A stretch of 64,000 bases of DNA from NCBI GenBank assembly GCA_001780275.1, contig MFGB01000020.1, forward strand, positions 40,813-104,812, in the 5' to 3' direction. This DNA comes from Candidatus Falkowbacteria bacterium RIFOXYA2_FULL_47_19 (lineage in GTDB: Bacteria; Patescibacteriota; Patescibacteriia; Patescibacteriales; UBA12075). A model generated the notes under the pieces. The model saw only the letters and a list, made by a program, of their open reading frames with translations, ran no database searches and was not told the DNA's origin. Every line of letters starts with the position of its first letter. Position 1 is the first letter of the stretch. Positions 3,700 to 51,302 of the stretch are shown piece by piece. A program made the position numbers and the translations under genes.

Positions 3700-4434
3700 A
3701 TGGATAAATCGATCATCATCATTCTTATCGCCCTGGCCGGACCCCTCTTGGGCGCCGTACTCGGCATCTGCGGGCGTTACAAGGAAAAGCAGGTATATTA
3801 TCTTCTAAGTTTCGCCGCCGGTGTAATGGCGTTTATTTCGATTTTCGAGCTTTTACCTGAAAGCCTTATTCATGGTTACGTTTTTCACTCTGTCCTGGGC
3901 TTGCTTTCGGGCGGTCTCGTCATGCACGTCTTAAATATCGTTTTACCGCATTTCCATCACCCGGAATGCGGCCAAAACAAGCTTAAACGCGCGACTTTAT
4001 TCGTTTTTTTAGGGATTGCCATCCATAATCTGCCGGAAGGCGCGGCTATCGGCATTGGAGCGTTCGCTGATTTAAAATTTTCCCTGGTTATCGCGCTGGC
4101 TATAGCGCTTCACGATATCCCCGAAGCTATTTGCGTCGCCGCGCCGCTCTATTCCGTTACCGGAAAAAAATGGAAATCTTTTTTTCTGGCGCTCTTGGCG
4201 GCCGTCCCCACGATTCTGGGATTTTTATTGACTTATTATTTCCTGGGAGATATCTCTTTAAAGACTTTAAGCCTCGTCATAAGTTTTACAGCCGGCGTTA
4301 TGCTCTATATTTCTTTCTTCGAAATAATTCCCGTCGTACTTGAAGGCCGCCTGGGAAAAAAATATGCCGGCGCCTGCTTTATGGCCGGTGTTTTACTGGT
4401 CTTCATTTTAGAGAAGATACTCGACTTGAATTAA
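3700..4434 (+). CDS. zupT: ZIP-family divalent metal (zinc) transporter
   Basis: Contains HNLPEGAAIG and HDIPEA metal-site motifs in a polytopic membrane protein. Overall layout resembles ZupT. Confidence 0.8.
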   Translation: MDKSIIIILIALAGPLLGAVLGICGRYKEKQVYYLLSFAAGVMAFISIFELLPESLIHGYVFHSVLGLLSGGLVMHVLNIVLPHFHHPECGQNKLKRATLFVFLGIAIHNLPEGAAIGIGAFADLKFSLVIALAIALHDIPEAICVAAPLYSVTGKKWKSFFLALLAAVPTILGFLLTYYFLGDISLKTLSLVISFTAGVMLYISFFEIIPVVLEGRLGKKYAGACFMAGVLLVFILEKILDLN

Positions 4435-4446
4435 GACCGTAATCAT

Positions 4447-5556
4447 ATGAAAAACGCGATAGCGATAATAACGCTTCTCTTTCTCTTCTGCCCGTATGTT
4501 TCCCGCGCGCAGGAAACGCCCGAAAAAGACGAAATTTTTCAGGCGCGGATAATCGCCGTGATCGCGGAGGAAGAAAAAACCGCCGATGACGGCAGTAAGT
4601 TCATCCAGCAGCATCTTAAATTGATCGGCCTTGAGGGCAGATACGACGACAAAGAATTCGAATTTAACGGTATCGGCGATATCGATGTTCTAAGTAAACA
4701 CGTCTTCGCGCCGGGCGACAAAGTAACTGTGGCGGCCAGCTACGGAGAAGGAAGCGAAGTTAATTTTTATATAGTGGATTTTGTCCGCTCGGAATCCCTC
4801 TGGCTGCTCGCCGCCCTTTTTTTGGCGGCTTTGCTCGCGATCGGCCGATTTAAAGGCTTTCGATCCCTTATAGCCTTGACCATCACCTTTCTGATCATAT
4901 TGAAATACATGATCCCGCAGATACTCTCCGGCACCGACCCTCTTTTAGTTACGGCGATCGGGTCCGTCCTGATACTCTTCTCTATAATATATATTACCGA
5001 GGGTTTTTGCTCCCGGGCGAACATATCGATATTAAGCATATTTTTAAGCCTGATATTAACGGTGGTCCTGGCGAATATCTTCGTCGGATTAACGAAGCTT
5101 ACGGGCGTAACCAGCGAAGACGTCCTTTTCCTGTCGGATATCGGGGGCGCGTCCCTGAATCTGCAGGGGCTTCTTTTGGCCGGGATCATCATCGGCACTC
5201 TCGGGGTTCTGGATGATATCGTAATTTCCCAGGTGGCTACGGTCGAACAGATAATCAGGGCTAATCCCGGTTTAACCAAAAAAGAATTATTCGGCAAGGC
5301 CTATGACGTGGGCACGTCCCATATCGCCTCTATGACCAACACCCTTTTTCTCGCTTACGCCGGCGCCTCATTGCCCCTTCTTGTTCTCTTCGCGTCCGGG
5401 GCAAGCGCCTTCACGGGCTGGGCGCAAGCCGTAAACACCGAACTCATCGCCACGGAGATCGTCCGGACGCTGGCGGGAAGCATCGGCCTCGTCTTGGCGG
5501 TTCCGATCTCCACCTATATCGCGGTTCTGTGGCATAAAAGAACCGGGATGCGTTAA
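4447..5556 (+). CDS. YibE/F-family membrane protein
   Basis: Signal/TM segment, soluble N-domain, then a multi-TM region with GVLDDIVISQVATVEQ and GTSHIASMTNTLFLAYAG motifs. Confidence 0.6.
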   Translation: MKNAIAIITLLFLFCPYVSRAQETPEKDEIFQARIIAVIAEEEKTADDGSKFIQQHLKLIGLEGRYDDKEFEFNGIGDIDVLSKHVFAPGDKVTVAASYGEGSEVNFYIVDFVRSESLWLLAALFLAALLAIGRFKGFRSLIALTITFLIILKYMIPQILSGTDPLLVTAIGSVLILFSIIYITEGFCSRANISILSIFLSLILTVVLANIFVGLTKLTGVTSEDVLFLSDIGGASLNLQGLLLAGIIIGTLGVLDDIVISQVATVEQIIRANPGLTKKELFGKAYDVGTSHIASMTNTLFLAYAGASLPLLVLFASGASAFTGWAQAVNTELIATEIVRTLAGSIGLVLAVPISTYIAVLWHKRTGMR

Positions 5557-5778
5557 TTCTTGCATTTTTTTTAATACTTTGCTAATATAATTTTGAAACA
5601 AAAAATGATATTGCGTGAATATTTTTTAATACTCGAAGAAATCCACCGGCGAAGCTGGTCGTCCACGGTTTCAAGTTGCGGACGAAGTCAGATATGTTCA
5701 TTTTAGGAATAAACGGATTCGAAATATATCGATAGTGGGTTTGCCCGTATGATCATTGTTGTTTGTCATTCCCGCGAA

Positions 5779-5954
5779 AGCGGGAATCCAGCCTGCCTGC
5801 CGGCAGGCAGGGGGTAGGCGGGATTAGCCATGCATTACGTATGTAATTGTCGGTACGGATTAATCCTGGATCCCCGATATCCGCCCCGGGCGGATTCGGG
5901 GATGACAAATTAACGTTTTGGAGAAGAGGACGAAGTCGGTGTGTAGCTTAACAT
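5779..5954 (+). repeat. Hairpin-rich intergenic repeat, copy A (second copy at 51092-51302)
   Basis: Contains tcccgcg-aaa-gcggga, the palindrome cctgcctgccggcaggcagg, and a roughly 15-bp hairpin atccccgatatccgcc/ggcggattcggggat, ending in gtcggtgtgtagcttaa. It aligns with copy B with loop differences and a G-U-compatible change. Confidence 0.7.
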
Positions 5955-5962
5955 ATAATTCT

Positions 5963-6059
5963 GCCCGGATGGTGAAATGGTAGACACGAGAGACTTAACC
6001 ATGCACCACGAAGGGTGCATGGTTACCCGGAACCCGACGTGGTTCCGGGTAAAATCTCC
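5963..6059 (+). pseudogene. tRNA-Leu(TAA) 5' half with a 54-nt double-hairpin insertion in the anticodon loop (no variable arm, T arm or 3' acceptor)
   Basis: 5959-5998 is identical to 6328-6367. After cttaa come two perfect hairpins (5999-6022 and 6023-6052). The anticodon-arm 3' side then resumes as aatctcc. Confidence 0.6.
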
Positions 6060-6073
6060 ACTCGATATGTTTT

Positions 6074-6325
6074 ATGTATTTCGTTTATATATTATTAATG
6101 AATAATAAAAAGCTGTACACGGGCTATACATCAAACATAAAAAGAAGGCTGAATGAACACAAACGAGGAGCGAATGAAACAACTAAAAAATATTTACCAA
6201 TAAAACTGATATTCTGTGAAATATTTTTAAACAAAAAAGACGCCGAGAGAAGGGAAAAGTATTTTAAAACGAGTAAGGGAAAAAGCACTATAAAATTAAT
6301 GTTACGGGAATATTTTCAAAAATAA
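6074..6325 (+). CDS. Small GIY-YIG nuclease-superfamily protein
   Basis: Motifs are FVYIL...LYTGYTSN..RRL.EH, and the protein is only 83 aa (catalytic domain only). It sits between the tRNA-Leu half-copy and the intact tRNA-Leu. Confidence 0.8.
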   Translation: MYFVYILLMNNKKLYTGYTSNIKRRLNEHKRGANETTKKYLPIKLIFCEIFLNKKDAERREKYFKTSKGKSTIKLMLREYFQK

Positions 6326-6331
6326 TTTTCT

Positions 6332-6414
6332 GCCCGGATGGTGAAATGGTAGACACGAGAGACTTAAAATCTCTTGGCCGCAAGGCCATGCCGGTTCAAG
6401 TCCGGCTCCGGGCA
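6332..6414 (+). tRNA. tRNA-Leu (anticodon TAA), class II long variable arm, CCA not encoded
   Basis: Acceptor gcccgga/tccgggc, anticodon arm agaga-cttaaaa-tctct, variable arm tggccgcaaggccat, T arm gccgg-ttcaagt-ccggc. Confidence 0.9.
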
Positions 6415-6423
6415 CAAACAAAA

Positions 6424-6449
6424 GGCCGCGCCACAGCGCGGTCTTTTTG
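6424..6449 (+). terminator. Intrinsic terminator after tRNA-Leu
   Basis: ggccgcgc-caca-gcgcggtc followed by ttttt. Confidence 0.65.
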
Positions 6450-6528
6450 ATTTAAGCTATGCTTTCGCAAATGCATGCAGTATGTAAAAAGCCTAAAAAT
6501 ATAACTGTTTTATTATCACAACGAAACA

Positions 6529-6557
6529 TTGACAAATTTAGATAAAACTGTTATACT
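6529..6557 (+). promoter_or_regulatory. Sigma70-like promoter
   Basis: TTGACA, 17-nt spacer, TATACT. Confidence 0.5.
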
Positions 6558-6748
6558 AATGAAATAAAAATTGCTTTAAATTTATAATCAATTTTTACTC
6601 AGGATCTTTGCTAACTTGCAGGCGAGTGTATTAATTATAACGCTTAATTGCGCTAACAGGATATTCAATGCGTTGCTCTTTAGAGACAAACCGCTAGTGC
6701 ATGGGACGGCGCGAGTCAAAAAACAAAAACAAAGAAAGGAATCACGTT

Positions 6749-7147
6749 ATGATCAGAGACATTTTTTCTTCTCTCTCGTCGTTCATAGACAAGTGTCTAG
6801 AGGTGCTACTCGTGTTTATCGCAGTTGGATTGCTGGGGCTGTTGATTTTCATCATGGTCGATTCCGTTGGGATAACTCCCACGAATACGACGACCACGGT
6901 AGTTGAGGTAAGACAGGTCGTTCCTGCTCACACTACAATACTTCTTCTTGGGGAGACCACCTTCCCACAGTATCACCCCGAATCCTATCGGCTATACTTT
7001 AAAATAGATGGGGAAAAAGTTTTTCTTACGGTTGGAAAAAAATTCTTCGCTGACGTCAAGGTCGGGGACATGATTGAGGTCGATTACGGGTTTGAAAGAT
7101 TGAGCAAGTTACCCCAGCCGATAAAAATCAGGCTGGTAACCAGATAA
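6749..7147 (+). CDS. Hypothetical membrane-anchored protein
   Basis: Internal ATG of track ORF 6701..7147, preceded by aaagaaagga. The N-terminal TM is LEVLLVFIAVGLLGLLIFIMV. A hairpin terminator lies at about 7162-7200. Confidence 0.55.
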   Translation: MIRDIFSSLSSFIDKCLEVLLVFIAVGLLGLLIFIMVDSVGITPTNTTTTVVEVRQVVPAHTTILLLGETTFPQYHPESYRLYFKIDGEKVFLTVGKKFFADVKVGDMIEVDYGFERLSKLPQPIKIRLVTR

Positions 7148-7380
7148 GCTGGACAAATCTCAAGGCCCCAGTGGTAGCAGTTACTACGTGGGGCCTTTTT
7201 ATTTTTACAATGAACCAAGAATTTGCCGCCAGTACTTTCCCGTTTTCGCAGGGAGACTTCCTTGCCCGGACTAATCCAAGTATTCCGCGATCTGAATTTC
7301 GAATGTCGATTGCCGATTGACGAATACAAAAACAGCGGCGCAAAAAATACGATCGATCGTGTATTCGCGCCGCTGTTTTT

Positions 7381-7899
7381 TTATTTCCAGATTTTTTTCA
7401 GTTTTTCGTTCAGACCGTATATTTCGCCGTCGCTTAGTCCGCCTTTGTTTTTGTCGTCATTATCGGCTTCGTCTATTTTTTCTTTTTTCCGGATGATCCG
7501 TTCCGCCCAATCGGTCGATCTTTCCAGGCGTACGCCATACCGAGTTTCACCCGCGGCCGCTTCCAGTCTTTGTCTCAATAAATTATCATCCGTAACCACG
7601 ACTATCCCTCGTTCCGCGCCGGCGAAATCTCCGCTTATGAAGCTTCCGCGCACCATCTCGACGATCTTGTCGTCGGCCGAACGGTAAAAATCGTCTTTGG
7701 GAGAGTAAATGACGGTCAAATTGTGGTCGATCAAAATTTTATCGCCCATTTTGTCTGTACCGTCAAAAACCAGCGTGATATTAACGCCCCTGTCCCGGTT
7801 AAATTCACGGATCATATCAATCAGCTTTCTGTCAAAATCATCCTGCCCGAGCATCTTTAATTTACCGGCTAAATTGTTTGCATCAATAATGAAGTGCAT
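7381..7899 (-). CDS. NYN-domain (YacP-like) predicted ribonuclease
   Basis: MHFIIDANNLAGK... and VNITLVFDG... match the YacP/NYN pattern. Confidence 0.7.
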   Translation of the reverse strand: MHFIIDANNLAGKLKMLGQDDFDRKLIDMIREFNRDRGVNITLVFDGTDKMGDKILIDHNLTVIYSPKDDFYRSADDKIVEMVRGSFISGDFAGAERGIVVVTDDNLLRQRLEAAAGETRYGVRLERSTDWAERIIRKKEKIDEADNDDKNKGGLSDGEIYGLNEKLKKIWK

Positions 7900-7999
7900 A
7901 TTTTATGCCCGCGAATTTTTGTAAGCTGAAAACCGCCAGTCGGCGGTTTTCATAAATTTTATTTAATATTTCTTATTCGTAATTCGAAATTCGACATTC

Positions 8000-9286
8000 T
8001 TAATTTACGATATTCCATTCCCTAAGCTTGTCTATGACCTTGCGGCTCGTGAGGACATTTAAAATATAGCTTCTGTATTCCGGGGTATCGAACCGGCCGG
8101 CCAGATCTTTGTGGTCCTTATATTGTTTTTTCATCTCCTCGACATTTTTTTCCACCTCCGAGGCCTCGACCCTGATCTTTTCCGCTTCGGCCACTTCGCG
8201 CACCAGCAGAGAGGTTTTTACGCGCTTGACCGCTTCCGGCAGAAGGTCGAGGGTAAGCTGTTCCTTGCTTTTGCCCAGGCTCGAAAGATAATCCTCGAAC
8301 TTGCCGCCCCTCTCGGTAACGGTCTGCTCGAGTTCGGCAAGCATGGTGTTCGCTTCGTGTTCGATCAATACCTCCGGCATATCGCCGAAACGGGCTTTAC
8401 CGACCAGTTTTTCAAGCATCTCTTTTTCGGCCGACTGCTCCGCTTCGCGCTTTTTCTGCTCTTCCAGACTCTTTTTTATGTTAGTCGTAAGCTCTTCCAT
8501 GTTCTTAAGTCCGAAACCGGCCGCCAGCTCGTCGTTAAGTTCCGGCAATACGCGTTCGTAAACTTCATTGACCTTAGCCTTGAATTCGATCATCTTTCCG
8601 GCTAAATTTTTCATATGGTGGTCTTTCGGGTAAGGCAAGCTGAATTCGCGGGTCTCGCCCTTTTTCATGCCTAGAATCTTCTTGTCGAAACCGGGCACGA
8701 CATAATTCTTGCCGATAACCACAGCCGCACCTTTGCCCTGGCCGCCCTCGACCGGCACTTTATCCAAAAACATATTGATGTCCGTGAGAACTTTGTCTCC
8801 GTCTTTTATTTCCCGGTCGACCAAAACCTCTTTTACCTTCATTTCCCGGATTTCGTTCATCATCCGGTCTGTTTCCTCCGCCTCGACAGTCGCTTTCTTC
8901 TGCTTGACCTTAAGGTCTTTATATTCTCCGAGCGTAACCGCCGGCAATATCGCGATAACGATCTTATAGACAAGAGGATTGCCGGGAGCGATCTTCGTGA
9001 TATCGACCTTCGGACTTCCCACCGGTTGGCCCTTGACGTGCTCCCTGAATACCTTGTCGATGGTTTTATCAATCGCGATCCGACTGGCCTCCTCAAGGAT
9101 CGTCATCTCCCCGATCTTCTTCTTTAATATTTCATAAGGCACGTTGCCCGGGCGGAAACCGTCGATCTTCACTTCCCGCGAGACCTTGGCCGCGCCTGCG
9201 AGGATATACGGTTTGAATTCGTCTACCGACAGTTCGACGGTCAGTTCCACCTGCGACTTCGGCAGTTCTTTTTTTTCTACATGCAT
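8000..9286 (-). CDS. tig: Trigger factor
   Basis: The N-terminal ribosome-binding region GFRPGNVP, a central PPIase-like segment and a helical C-domain are all present at full length (428 aa). Confidence 0.93.
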   Translation of the reverse strand: MHVEKKELPKSQVELTVELSVDEFKPYILAGAAKVSREVKIDGFRPGNVPYEILKKKIGEMTILEEASRIAIDKTIDKVFREHVKGQPVGSPKVDITKIAPGNPLVYKIVIAILPAVTLGEYKDLKVKQKKATVEAEETDRMMNEIREMKVKEVLVDREIKDGDKVLTDINMFLDKVPVEGGQGKGAAVVIGKNYVVPGFDKKILGMKKGETREFSLPYPKDHHMKNLAGKMIEFKAKVNEVYERVLPELNDELAAGFGLKNMEELTTNIKKSLEEQKKREAEQSAEKEMLEKLVGKARFGDMPEVLIEHEANTMLAELEQTVTERGGKFEDYLSSLGKSKEQLTLDLLPEAVKRVKTSLLVREVAEAEKIRVEASEVEKNVEEMKKQYKDHKDLAGRFDTPEYRSYILNVLTSRKVIDKLREWNIVN

Positions 9287-20505: not shown

Positions 20506-20579
20506 GGAGCGGTAGCTCAGTTGGTTAGAGCGCTGCCCTGTCACGGCAGAGGTCGCGGGTTCGAGCCCCGTCCGCTCCG
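20506..20579 (+). tRNA. tRNA-Asp (anticodon GTC), CCA not encoded
   Basis: Acceptor ggagcgg/ccgctcc, anticodon arm ctgcc-ctgtcac-ggcag, T arm gcggg-ttcgagc-cccgt. Confidence 0.9.
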
Positions 20580-20584
20580 CAAAA
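20560..20584 (+). repeat. Direct repeat, left copy (3' end of tRNA-Asp; att-like)
   Basis: ttcgagccccgtccgctccgcaaaa is identical to 27420-27444. Confidence 0.8.
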
Positions 20585-20796
20585 CAAGAAATCCCGATAC
20601 TTCGGGATTTTTTGTTTTGTGGAACGGATGTACGCAAGAACCCGTTTGATTATAGAATAATGGCAGGATAAATTACTTACACATCGAATAAGAATTTTAA
20701 ATCCCACCCTCCGTATCCTTTGATCCTGCCCCGCTTGCCCCGCAGGTGAGCGCAGCGAGCTGTGCGGGGTCCGCTCCGCCAGGCGTATTTAATCAT

Positions 20797-21048
20797 ATGC
20801 AGTATGTCGTATACATTTTGCAAAGCAAAAAAGACTTAAGCTATTATATCGGGCACACTGATAATCCGGAAAGGAGAATTGAGGAGCATAATCGCGGTAA
20901 AGATAAATATACAAAAAGTAAAATTCCTTGGACCTTGGTTCGCAAGGAATTTTTTGATACCAGGGGCGAGGCCATGACGAGGGAAAATCAAATAAAAAGA
21001 AAAAAGAGTAGAAAATACATAGATTGGCTGGTTGGCTCTAAAAGTTAG
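20797..21048 (+). CDS. Small GIY-YIG nuclease-superfamily protein
   Basis: MQYVVYILQSKKDLSYYIGHTDNPERRIEEHN. The start is taken at the internal ATG of track ORF 20746..21048, because the upstream part runs through a GC hairpin. Confidence 0.75.
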   Translation: MQYVVYILQSKKDLSYYIGHTDNPERRIEEHNRGKDKYTKSKIPWTLVRKEFFDTRGEAMTRENQIKRKKSRKYIDWLVGSKS

Positions 21049-21085
21049 AGCGTCCCGACGGCCGTCGGGAAGGTCGCGGGTTTTT
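21033..21085 (+). pseudogene. tRNA-Asp-like fragment with the anticodon arm replaced by a 7-bp GC hairpin
   Basis: ggctc....gttagagcg / tcccgac-ggcc-gtcggga / aggtcgcgggtt aligns with the D arm, variable region and T-stem 5' side of tRNA-Asp. No acceptor stem is present. Confidence 0.4.
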
Positions 21086-51091: not shown

Positions 51092-51302
51092 TTCCCGCGC
51101 GAGCGGGAATCCAGCCTGCCGGCCGGCAGGGGGTGGGCGGGATTAACTTTGTATTGTGTTTGCGATTGTCGGTACGGATAGATCATGGATCCCCGATATC
51201 CGTCCCGGGCGGATTCGGGGATGACAAATCAGCGTTTTGGAAAAGAGAGTGGAGTCCGTTTACTAATAATTCCACCGACAAGGTCGGTGTGTAGTTTAAT
51301 AT
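51092..51302 (+). repeat. Hairpin-rich intergenic repeat, copy B (copy A at 5779-5954)
   Basis: Same order of modules as copy A. It has a shortened central palindrome (cctgccggccggcagg) and about 30 extra nt before the shared gtcggtgtgtag(c/t)ttaa end. Confidence 0.7.

Follow-up and report, generated by a model that had tools for sequence, protein, structure and literature searches.

A double hairpin and a small GIY-YIG nuclease gene form a recurrent, putatively mobile cassette at bacterial tRNA genes

Organization of the tRNA-Leu locus

The window analysed here, a stretch of 64,000 nucleotides from Candidatus Falkowbacteria bacterium RIFOXYA2_FULL_47_19 (contig MFGB01000020.1), contains an intact tRNA-Leu(TAA) gene preceded by a copy of its own 5′ half, with two hairpins and a small gene for a GIY-YIG protein in between. 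The locus and its immediate surroundings comprise:

5590–5632, + strand: 3′ remnant of an older GIY-YIG gene (..KMILREYF..), which aligns to the 3′ end of the intact gene
5959–5998, + strand: truncated upstream copy of tRNA-Leu(TAA), identical to 6328–6367 over 40 of 40 nt
5996–6052, + strand: double hairpin (DH), made of H1 (5996–6025) and H2 (6023–6052), each with perfect 12-nt arms
6050–6058, + strand: resumption of the tRNA sequence, TAAAATCTC (nt 34–42), equal to 6365–6373
6074–6325, + strand: gene for an 83-aa single-domain GIY-YIG nuclease (Pfam PF01541, E value 1.5 × 10−16)
6328–6415, + strand: 4-nt leader and intact tRNA-Leu(TAA) (ARAGORN; Rfam tRNA, 60 bits)
6424–6448, + strand: GC-rich hairpin followed by TTTTT, a terminator-like site in the scan, to which the terminator part of Rfam leader models aligns

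The repeated segment (blastn E value 7 × 10−17) consists of four leader bases and tRNA nt 1–36, its last base being the end of the anticodon. From there the order is anticodon TAA, H1, TTA (the reverse complement of the anticodon), H2 and TAA, and as TAA stands on both flanks of the insert, the break can be placed anywhere from 33/34 to 36/37. In predicted folds the resumed nt 34–42 allow the anticodon stem to close around the DH, and beyond them there is no tRNA similarity. The DH ends 21 nt before the GIY-YIG start codon, the intact tRNA gene proper (6332–6415) starts 7 nt past the nuclease stop codon, and the 329 nt between the tRNA repeats hold the DH and the 83-aa open reading frame (ORF) only. 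When folded, positions 5959–6073 reach z scores of −4.7 as DNA and −4.8 as RNA against shuffles, and the hairpin at 6424–6448, judging by its sequence, probably terminates a common transcript, which would run from the tRNA fragment through the DH and the nuclease mRNA to the tRNA. The 40-nt repeat, the intact tRNA in its second copy, the two perfect hairpins, the resumed side of the anticodon stem with the loss of similarity behind it and the GIY-YIG ORF had all been named in a preliminary description of this DNA, and all of them hold up here. An identical GIY-YIG gene is found on four independent JGI metagenome contigs, in three of them with tRNA-Leu(TAA) 10 nt downstream, so that the locus, compared over the gene and the downstream tRNA, is not an assembly artefact.

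The older remnant lies just 3′ of a YibE/F gene, and a longer remnant occupies the same place in a related locus (L086). Elsewhere in the window, a tblastn search (E value 3 × 10−10) revealed a second, degenerate cassette:

20768–21083, + strand: second cassette as a whole
20768–20783, + strand: tRNA-Asp 3′-end piece followed by CCA, assigned by eye
20797–21048, + strand: GIY-YIG gene, 34% identical to the first
about 21049–21083, + strand: tRNA-Asp-like piece from D-arm to T-stem, assigned by eye

An intact tRNA-Asp gene (20506–20580) lies 215 nt upstream. The preliminary description had considered that the GIY-YIG family might be linked to tRNA nowhere else; we found the opposite, as the second such gene of the window also adjoins a tRNA.

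A bare catalytic domain

The 83-aa protein matches the Pfam GIY-YIG family over residues 1–70 with 60.9 bits (cut-off 22.6). Its relatives are 75–95 aa long and lack a second domain, and across 24 of them Y5, G17, R25, H29, E61 and K65 are invariant and Y15 is nearly so. An NCBIfam scan of the protein gave no match over the cut-off. Searched against the PDB, which holds no Ssn structure, profile A1 retrieved 1zg2 (BH0048, E value 5.5 × 10−16) and 1ywl (EF2693, E value 5 × 10−14), both UPF0213 proteins, and the product of Bacillus subtilis yazA (UPF0213, YhbQ/YazA type) is 35% identical. In a plasmid collection, tblastn returned just two weak matches, of the UPF0213 type.

A structured hairpin family at the ends of tRNA pieces

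We described the DH by an alignment (A2) and a covariance model (R1). In A2, 87% of the cells are paired and eight pairs show compensatory changes, with a covariation score that none of 500 shuffles reached; the consensus is CCnTGAACC..GGTTCAnGG, mostly doubled, and the loops of H1 and H2 are mutually complementary in several loci. Over the 64-kb window, R1 recovered the DH as its sole match (66.9 bits, E value 5 × 10−15; runner-up E value 0.06) and detected no DH in the second cassette. Across related loci it found 57 DH sites in 39 of 82, each close to a GIY-YIG gene (at most 184 nt upstream or 392 nt downstream), and none away from such genes in 454 kb of loci. Sites upstream of the gene mostly end 9–33 nt before its start (25 of 39), and some loci (L035, L037, L061 and L068) carry a DH on both sides. 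The exact H1 pattern, which represents one DH variant, retrieved 17 unrelated hairpins from viral contigs (IMG/VR), none of them beside a GIY-YIG gene or a tRNA.

The position of these hairpins relative to tRNA is precise: 35 of the 57 sites directly abut tRNA-derived sequence, and the start of the DH coincides with the end of the tRNA piece, be it anticodon nt 36, the D or T loop or the 3′ CCA end. Twelve of the 35 lie at the tRNA 3′ end, ten at nt 36 (within 2 nt) and eight in the D-loop region (seven at nt 18, in Leu tRNAs); the remaining five are at other positions, some of them within or close to the T loop. Five loci have a lone hairpin between exact 8-nt repeats of the tRNA 3′ end, an arrangement that shuffles never produced.

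Recurrence at tRNA genes in many phyla

For comparison we used 80 loci of other genomes, each with a gene for a relative of the 83-aa protein. Within 400 nt of the nuclease gene the density of tRNA genes is 1.02 per kb, about 13 times that farther away (0.08 per kb); 60 of 89 GIY-YIG matches (84 loci) have a tRNA at this distance, and 62 of 63 nearby tRNAs are co-oriented with the nuclease gene, whose stop codon lies 4–30 nt before the tRNA start in other loci. The layout of the window, that is, a tRNA 5′ piece, the DH, the GIY-YIG gene and the intact tRNA, recurs at Leu, Gln, Arg, Ser and Met tRNA genes. Upstream pieces are exact copies of nt 1–36/37, 1–18 or 1–71, with the intact tRNA 3′ of the nuclease gene, and in seven loci (L010, L021, L033, L035, L049, L057 and L061) the piece is nt 1–36/37 at 100% identity. 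Where a loop is interrupted, the same tRNA is present again, intact, behind the nuclease gene. Resumption of the tRNA sequence after the DH, for 4–9 nt, is likewise seen in other loci.

More elaborate arrangements also occur. Locus L068 reads [1–37] DH GIY [1–74] [26–36] DH [34–73], with L005 and L035 alike, and in loci of this type the matching tRNA 3′ half is retained behind the second DH; L006 and L057 hold tandem arrays of fragments and DHs, and L005 and L007 hairpin-riddled pseudo-tRNAs. The cassette is found beside tRNA genes in many bacterial phyla, carried by some tRNAs and some genomes only, and full-text literature searches returned no paper in which small GIY-YIG genes are connected with hairpins and tRNA fragments.

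Arguments against an intron or an integrase scar

The preliminary description had pointed out that the break falls at the tRNA-Leu(UAA) intron site and had offered a decayed intron or homing event as one origin. Such an origin, a group I or other intron with a homing ORF that decayed and was later rescued by duplication of the tRNA, would explain a break in the anticodon loop near the classic 34/35 position. It has precedent in the same phylum, as tRNA genes of Patescibacteria often hold group I introns, some with endonuclease genes (PMC13011429), which like the cassette combine an interrupted anticodon loop with a nuclease ORF nearby; the protein also has a weak match to TIGR01453, the group I intron endonuclease family, although at 21 bits (cut-off 56) and over residues 2–42 only. 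However, a search of positions 5500–6700 with Rfam (E value ≤ 10) found no group I intron or other ribozyme, only the tRNA and chance or terminator-type matches. Just nt 34–42 follow the insert, hence there is no 3′ exon, and the 3′ half at 6368–6415 is part of an entire tRNA that has a 5′ half to itself. The gene encodes a bare 83-aa catalytic domain without a DNA-binding domain, and the term ‘GIY-YIG’ is absent from the text of the survey of bacterial tRNA introns (PMC13011429). Other tRNAs carry these hairpins at the 3′ CCA end or in the D or T loop, so agreement with the Leu intron site is a coincidence. With neither a group I signal nor a 3′ half in the upstream copy, the intron reading fails; we consider it largely refuted and its chances very slight.

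The missing 3′ half equally led us to reject a bulge–helix–bulge (BHB) intron or a split tRNA, for which bacteria, moreover, are not known to possess the splicing endonuclease. The locus is a hairpin–nuclease cassette rather than a decayed intron, and its upstream half should not be annotated as a tRNA, whether ordinary, split or intron-containing.

Integrative elements typically leave partial tRNA copies next to intact tRNA genes, and the cassette resembles them in having a partial duplicate at one end while keeping a functional tRNA, so the locus could in principle be the attachment-site scar of an integrase-type island or prophage. In contrast to such elements, which normally duplicate the 3′ end, it is the 5′ portion that is usually duplicated (nt 1–36 in the window), and the breaks fall in tRNA loops instead of a 3′ att core. 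The would-be island of 329 nt (a cargo of about 330 nt) contains hairpins and an 83-aa gene only and recurs with the same small cargo and layout across dozens of genomes; no integrase is encoded, as there is no integrase-sized ORF between or beside the repeats in positions 4000–9000 (Pfam was run on the 83-aa and 42-aa ORFs only). An integrase scar is accordingly unlikely, and we give it next to no weight. Fragments of tRNA genes in prokaryotes are a recognized annotation issue (bioRxiv 10.1101/2022.07.05.498093).

Mobility and the alternative of a fixed operon

The preliminary description had put forward, as the other origin, that a mobile cassette copied part of the tRNA it targeted. The recurrent layout agrees with it, whereas mobility itself rests on remnants and rearranged relatives, because no empty site was recovered: two metagenome scans and the loci of relatives contained neither an empty site nor a presence–absence polymorphism, and homologues of the downstream 132-aa gene, used to search for one, are non-syntenic and have no tRNA-Leu upstream. 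At L086, the fragment and hairpins are present but the nuclease gene is absent before the next tRNA-Leu start, and the fragment matches the tRNA of the window while differing from the resident one. In the two closest relatives, identified through the YibE/F neighbour (75–90% identical at the protein level), the contigs stop within the repeat zone.

The absence of an empty site would also be expected of a fixed, vertically inherited operon, in which the GIY-YIG protein does housekeeping work at tRNA genes with heavy transcription, the hairpins act within a shared tRNA–mRNA transcript as signals for RNA processing, stability or insulation, and the tRNA fragments arose by local tandem duplication. 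Strict orientation and tight spacing suit co-transcription from the tRNA promoter, H1 pairs with the CCA tail of the adjoining tRNA, and the protein is conserved across phyla with its catalytic residues intact. In a neighbour-joining tree, moreover, the GIY-YIG proteins cluster by tRNA type and layout, as an operon would predict; given that host phylogeny is confounded with tRNA type, we did not count this clustering in favour of homing, and it leaves room for long vertical inheritance. Such an operon is nevertheless hard to reconcile with the nuclease remnants and rearrangements that relatives with a 75–90% identical neighbouring protein show at this locus, with a cassette that sits at many tRNA species, at varied positions inside them, and in only some tRNAs and genomes, with the tandem arrays and pseudo-tRNAs described above or with the foreign fragment at L086. 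We therefore hold a fixed operon to be improbable, if still worth serious consideration.

Relation to known systems

The Ssn family (CDD cd10448) is the closest described system (Chenal et al. 2025, Nat Commun 16:2388; PMC11893778). Ssn nucleases are single-domain GIY-YIG proteins of ~94 aa, with hairpin repeats flanking their genes, which bind their hairpin solely as single-stranded DNA (ssDNA), cut just upstream of it and leave RNA untouched; the authors term the hairpin–gene–hairpin arrangement IS-like, and the paper does not mention tRNA. The cassette shares with them a stand-alone protein of about 80–95 aa, the catalytic spacing (Y6/Y17/E64 in SsnA, Y5/Y15/E61 in the window protein) and a gene immediately flanked, at times on both sides, by short cognate hairpins. 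By analogy, the junction between the tRNA piece and the 5′ side of H1 may correspond to the Ssn cut site. In contrast to Ssn hairpins, the DH belongs to a different sequence family, outside the SRM consensus, and is not dispersed but found only beside the gene and against tRNA-derived sequence. The cassette is probably a selfish element related to Ssn ssDNA nucleases, although its nuclease is no more than a candidate member of the Ssn clade, the nearest solved structures being UPF0213 proteins.

Phage T4 SegB, a free-standing GIY-YIG homing endonuclease in a tRNA gene cluster (PMC2330249), likewise places a GIY-YIG gene among tRNA genes and, as the cassette may do, spreads itself together with flanking tRNA sequence by cleavage and recombinational repair. 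Seg proteins, however, exceed 200 aa, carry a DNA-binding domain and cut double-stranded DNA, and their systems have no cognate hairpins, no duplicated tRNA fragments and no insertions within tRNA loops. We rejected a homing endonuclease of the Seg or I-TevI type, as a protein of 83 aa in total has neither the linker nor the C-terminal DNA-binding domain.

Short palindromic hairpins, often as inverted doublets, that flank a single small nuclease gene and are tied to it are also a trait of REP/REPIN–RAYT and IS200/IS605 systems, where, as here, recognition is presumed to take place on folded ssDNA. The enzyme differs, being a GIY-YIG hydrolase instead of a HUH (Y1) transposase and thus not performing strand transfer itself, and unlike REP sequences the hairpins are confined to tRNA genes and fragments and not scattered between genes. 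A HUH (Y1) transposase element was rejected, the ORF containing only a GIY-YIG domain.

A model for the spread of the cassette

On balance, we favour with moderate confidence that the locus is one copy of a widespread, mobile tRNA-gene cassette consisting of a DH and a small GIY-YIG gene within ~20 nt. Its nuclease may act in the manner of Ssn enzymes, binding its own hairpin in ssDNA and nicking alongside it, where the tRNA piece adjoins. Repair of the free end, with its tRNA sequence, would then draw on a homologous tRNA gene as a template for copying or as a partner for annealing, either through homing-like synthesis-dependent strand annealing or through a single crossover of an excised hairpin–nuclease–tRNA unit; by both routes, part of the tRNA would be duplicated on one side of the cassette and an intact tRNA always regenerated. 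The upstream 5′ half would thus be a junction footprint and neither a gene nor an exon. The tRNA gene would supply a strong promoter and a homology arm conserved between genomes, while the complete downstream tRNA-Leu(UAA) copy would maintain the tRNA supply of the cell. GIY-YIG enzymes are DNA hydrolases, unable to join strands, so the insertion chemistry would have to be that of host repair.

Some observations sit uneasily with such a mobile cassette. The regenerated tRNA is identical to the target, and a homing enzyme of the classical kind would cut its own locus again; and the 64-kb window contains a single DH, unlike dispersed NTS or REP repeats.

A further one is that insertion in tRNA loops or after CCA fits an event at the RNA level as well as it fits folded ssDNA. 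A tRNA 5′ half severed behind nt 36, or a mature tRNA ending in CCA, might have been joined to, or have primed, a hairpin–nuclease RNA that was afterwards reverse transcribed and entered the tRNA gene by recombination. The hairpins do start where a folded tRNA is exposed and single-stranded, namely in its three loops (D, anticodon and T) or at the 3′ end, and the opening bases of H1 directly after the tRNA piece are CCA or CCN (..CTTAA-CCA-TGCACC in the window, with CCA likewise after the tRNA-Asp 3′ fragment), even though the tRNA-Leu and tRNA-Asp genes of the window encode no CCA. However, H1 bases 1–3 vary (CCA, CCC, CCG) and covary with their pairing partner, and so behave as stem bases; neither the cassettes nor their surroundings encode a reverse transcriptase, characterized Ssn enzymes do not act on RNA, and folded single-stranded tDNA exposes identical loops. 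An RNA-level origin strikes us as quite improbable. A comparison of CCA behind DH-linked tRNAs (17 of 17 against 32 of 63) was set aside, as it is biased by the wording of the pattern and at least six DH-linked tRNAs lack CCA.

More tentatively, and as a possibility that we would not yet favour, the DH and its Ssn-like nuclease might constitute a new class of tRNA-gene-specific mobile elements, which enter the cloverleaf loops or the 3′ end and duplicate the tRNA. Such elements would enter where the folded sense strand is single-stranded (D, anticodon and T loops, 3′ end), would let the host survive by carrying or duplicating the displaced part of the tRNA, and would draw on the tRNA for a promoter and for a universal homology arm by which to pass between genomes. 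If so, they would generally give rise to arrays of tRNA fragments and to broken contigs, in Patescibacteria, Omnitrophota, Planctomycetota and further phyla.

Should the mobile cassette be real, Ssn-type nucleases would gain a natural and interpretable genomic target in tRNA genes, and Ssn-based ssDNA tools a second hairpin family. It would also represent a selfish element that occupies an essential single-copy tRNA gene without integrase or ribozyme, by rebuilding the gene, and would account for tRNA half-genes, hairpin-riddled pseudo-tRNAs and assembly breaks at tRNA genes in metagenome-assembled genomes.

An Ssn-type hairpin near the cassette

We also considered the DH as an Ssn-type SRM/NTS hairpin and rejected this assignment, as that consensus does not describe it; in related loci the SRM pattern has three matches in 455 kb, which equals background. 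In favour of a link to the Ssn family, 27 nt identical to its NTS hairpin occur at 5765–5791, 170 nt 5′ of the tRNA fragment; this sole NTS hit of the window (5764–5791) forms part of a separate repeat, ~280 nt upstream.

Anatomy of the tRNA-Leu locus

The preliminary description had proposed that a 40-nt repeat opens an intact tRNA-Leu(TAA) in its second copy, that two perfect hairpins interrupt the anticodon loop of the upstream copy before tRNA sequence briefly resumes, and that an 83-aa GIY-YIG ORF lies between the copies, and we recovered all of these elements. The repeat is exact (blastn E 7e-17), and the intact tRNA gene (6332-6415; ARAGORN; Rfam tRNA 60 bits) begins within its second copy, so that the upstream copy consists of 4 leader bases and tRNA nt 1-36.

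Features of the locus
5959-5998, + strand: partial copy of tRNA-Leu(TAA), identical to 6328-6367
5996-6025: hairpin H1, perfect, 12-nt arms, directly after the upstream tRNA copy
6023-6052: hairpin H2, perfect, 12-nt arms
6050-6058: resumption of tRNA sequence (TAAAATCTC), repeating nt 34-42; tRNA similarity stops there
6074-6325, + strand: GIY-YIG ORF, 83-aa protein (Pfam E 1.5e-16)

The stretch 5959-6073 folds far better than shuffled sequence (z about -4.7, as DNA or RNA), and its predicted fold is a three-way junction with both hairpins, closed by the anticodon stem. An identical GIY-YIG gene occurs in four independent metagenome contigs, and in three of these tRNA-Leu(TAA) follows after 10 nt, so the arrangement of gene and downstream tRNA is no assembly artefact. 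The neighbouring proteins, like the closest homologues, belong to Patescibacteria (CPR), probably to a Falkowbacteria-like member. An integrase scar was rejected as scarcely credible, given a cargo of 329 nt, the lack of a recombinase and a duplicated part that is the 5' one.

Linkage to tRNA genes across phyla

With an alignment of relatives of the 83-aa protein we retrieved 80 loci (labelled L plus a number) from one-genome-per-species contigs, which represent Patescibacteria, Omnitrophota, Planctomycetota, Bacteroidota and other phyla. A tRNA gene lies at most 400 nt away in 60 of 89 GIY-YIG matches. Density reaches 1.02 tRNAs per kb within 400 nt of the nuclease gene compared to 0.08 per kb in the remainder of the same loci, and 62 of the 63 tRNAs within this distance are on the nuclease strand.

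Two layouts recur. In the first, that of the window, the tRNA (Leu, Gln, Arg, Ser or Met) starts 4-30 nt past the nuclease stop codon, and its 5' part is present as an exact copy ahead of the nuclease gene. In seven loci (Arg-TCG, Leu-TAA, Leu-CAA, Gln-CTG, Gln-TTG) this copy spans nt 1-36/37, in five Leu loci nt 1-18, and in one Ser locus nt 1-71. In the second, 65-250 nt separate the end of the tRNA (Asn, Gln, Glu, Met, Ser, Arg, Ala or Gly) from the start codon of the downstream nuclease gene.

A double hairpin confined to the nuclease genes

Every 1-36 copy ends at the last anticodon base, and two hairpins of the same family come next (H1 GCCnTGAACC-loop-GGTTCAnGGC, then H2 CCTGAACC-loop-GGTTCnGGG), after which 4-9 nt of tRNA sequence resume ahead of a spacer and the nuclease start codon. 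The local anticodon and its complement add to the length of the stems (TAA/TTA/TAA in the window; CTG/CAG/CTG and TTG/CAA/TTG in Gln loci). Loci of the second layout have these hairpins immediately after the tRNA 3' end; there the tail of the tRNA base-pairs with H1 (..GCCA|TGAACC..GGTTCA|TGGC), and H1 covaries where the tail differs. In an alignment of 13 double hairpins, 87% of cells pair and eight pairs show compensatory changes. The covariation score is reached by none of 500 shuffles, and pairing in slid controls drops to 21-51%.

The only hit in the 64-kb window of a covariance model built from this alignment is the window's own double hairpin (66.9 bits; next best E 0.06). Elsewhere it finds 57 sites in 39 of 82 loci, each of them at most 184 nt upstream or 392 nt downstream of a GIY-YIG gene; the 454 kb of related loci contain no site away from such genes. 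The double hairpin belongs to the cassette. In five Leu loci (L006, L008, L011, L017 and L022, about 2920-2985) the H1 and H2 loops are mutually complementary (ACTAAAG/CTTTAGT), so the pair can also form one hairpin of 15-19 bp, in likeness to REPIN doublets.

Junctions with tRNA sequence

Sequence identical to a tRNA of the same locus directly adjoins 35 of the 57 sites.

Positions of the junctions in the tRNA
tRNA 3' end: 12 sites
nt 36 (within 2 nt): 10 sites
D-loop region: 8 sites, 7 of them at nt 18 of Leu tRNAs
elsewhere, some in or near the T loop: 5 sites

The preliminary description had alternatively suggested a decayed intron or homing event at the tRNA-Leu(UAA) intron site. This does not hold, as there is no ribozyme and no 3' exon, and the same insert also occurs at tRNA 3' ends; we rejected the intron reading as extremely improbable. 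An origin of the junctions at the RNA level would fit those in loops and at CCA, but a reverse transcriptase is absent and we think it improbable.

Some loci hold pseudo-tRNA copies of the 3' part whose anticodon, variable and T loops simultaneously carry hairpins of this family (L005 3350-3520, L007 3342-3690, L046 2888-2975), and arrays of up to four double hairpins downstream of an intact tRNA also occur among these three. Tandem arrays of fragment plus double hairpin (DH) are found in L006 and L057, and in other loci the unit still has the two halves of the broken tRNA on its sides, as in L068, which reads [1-37] DH GIY [1-74] [26-36] DH [34-73]. Five loci (L028, L038, L048, L080 and L081; for example L081 2928-2962) have a single 19-nt hairpin (TGNACC-loop-GGTNCA-TGG) between exact direct repeats of the 8-nt tRNA 3' end (N5CCA), a combination absent from shuffled loci. 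The repeat looks like a target duplication.

Turnover at the locus and a second cassette

The 3' end of an older GIY-YIG gene persists at 5590-5632, immediately past the YibE/F gene. In L086, whose YibE/F protein is 75% identical, a longer remnant occupies the same place (6140-6200), the window version having an additional 20-nt deletion. After it (6211-6382) come a tRNA-Leu fragment (nt 1-15, D-loop hairpins, nt 24-34), a spacer of about 45 nt with no nuclease gene and the start of another tRNA-Leu. The fragment (GCCCGGATGGTGAAA...CACGAGAGACT) is identical to the window tRNA-Leu and differs from the resident tRNA-Leu 45 nt on (GCCCAGGTGGTGAAACTGGTATAC...), which hints that tRNA fragments travel between genomes with the cassette. 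L085, a 90% relative, shows a different arrangement again. Both contigs stop 170-290 nt past the YibE/F gene, inside the zone of tRNA fragments and hairpins; such repeats may be a systematic source of contig breaks beside tRNA genes in metagenome-assembled genomes.

The window holds a second region of this kind.

Features of the second region
20506-21083: GIY-YIG region including tRNA-Asp, with tRNA-Asp-like pieces on both sides of the gene
20797-21048: small GIY-YIG gene, 34% identical to the first, 215 nt downstream of tRNA-Asp

Ahead of this gene, ggggtccgctccgCCA copies the 3' end of tRNA-Asp and includes CCA, which is not encoded in the genuine tRNA-Asp gene; behind it lies a tRNA-Asp-like piece from D-arm to T-stem, its anticodon arm swapped for a different hairpin. 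The covariance model finds no double hairpin in 20506-21083.

A fixed tRNA-linked operon, its hairpins acting as RNA signals, would account for orientation and spacing but leaves remnants, arrays and the many target positions unexplained, and we consider it unlikely. The mobile cassette of the preliminary description, copying part of its tRNA target, gains from the recurrent tRNA-linked architecture, remnants and rearrangements; its empty site was found neither in relatives nor in two metagenome scans, more distant homologues of the downstream gene lacking synteny.

Relation to Ssn nucleases

Among described systems the Ssn family comes closest; its members are GIY-YIG proteins of about 94 aa with a single domain, encoded by genes that have NTS/SRM hairpin repeats on their flanks (Chenal et al. 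2025, PMC11893778). Binding is limited to the hairpin in single-stranded DNA, the cut falls a few bases upstream of it, and the authors likened the hairpin-gene-hairpin layout to an insertion sequence (PMC11893778). The window protein shares their size, single domain, catalytic-residue spacing and cognate hairpins, and its tRNA junction lies where an Ssn-type enzyme would be expected to cut. Membership in the Ssn clade is unproven: the double hairpin falls outside the published SRM consensus, SRM matches in the 80 loci are at background level and the nearest solved structures are UPF0213 proteins.

Given the Ssn-like protein, its cognate hairpins and a junction at the expected cut position, the region is therefore most likely a selfish hairpin-plus-nuclease cassette resident at tRNA genes. 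The nuclease would nick its presumed substrate, the DNA strand bearing the hairpin, and the tRNA-carrying end would then be repaired against a homologous tRNA gene, by homing-like copying or through one crossover involving an excised hairpin-nuclease-tRNA unit; in both cases part of the tRNA would be duplicated and one intact copy left. Co-transcription probably starts at the tRNA promoter and extends as far as the terminator at 6424-6448.

The Ssn paper (PMC11893778) makes no mention of tRNA, and in the full-text literature, a coverage mostly outside subscription journals, we came across no account of small GIY-YIG genes combined with hairpins inserted at tRNA loops and with rebuilt tRNA genes.

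Separately, a MITE-like repeat of about 150 nt lies at 5762-5909, with a second copy, 85% identical, at 51092-51247 and inverted ends TTTGTCATTCCCG / CGGGGATGACAAA. Over 27 nt, its 5' end (5765-5791) is identical to the Neisseria NTS hairpin that SsnA recognises, and its 3' end has a similar hairpin on the opposite strand. The inner palindrome of this element lies directly behind a tRNA-Leu fragment in L085.
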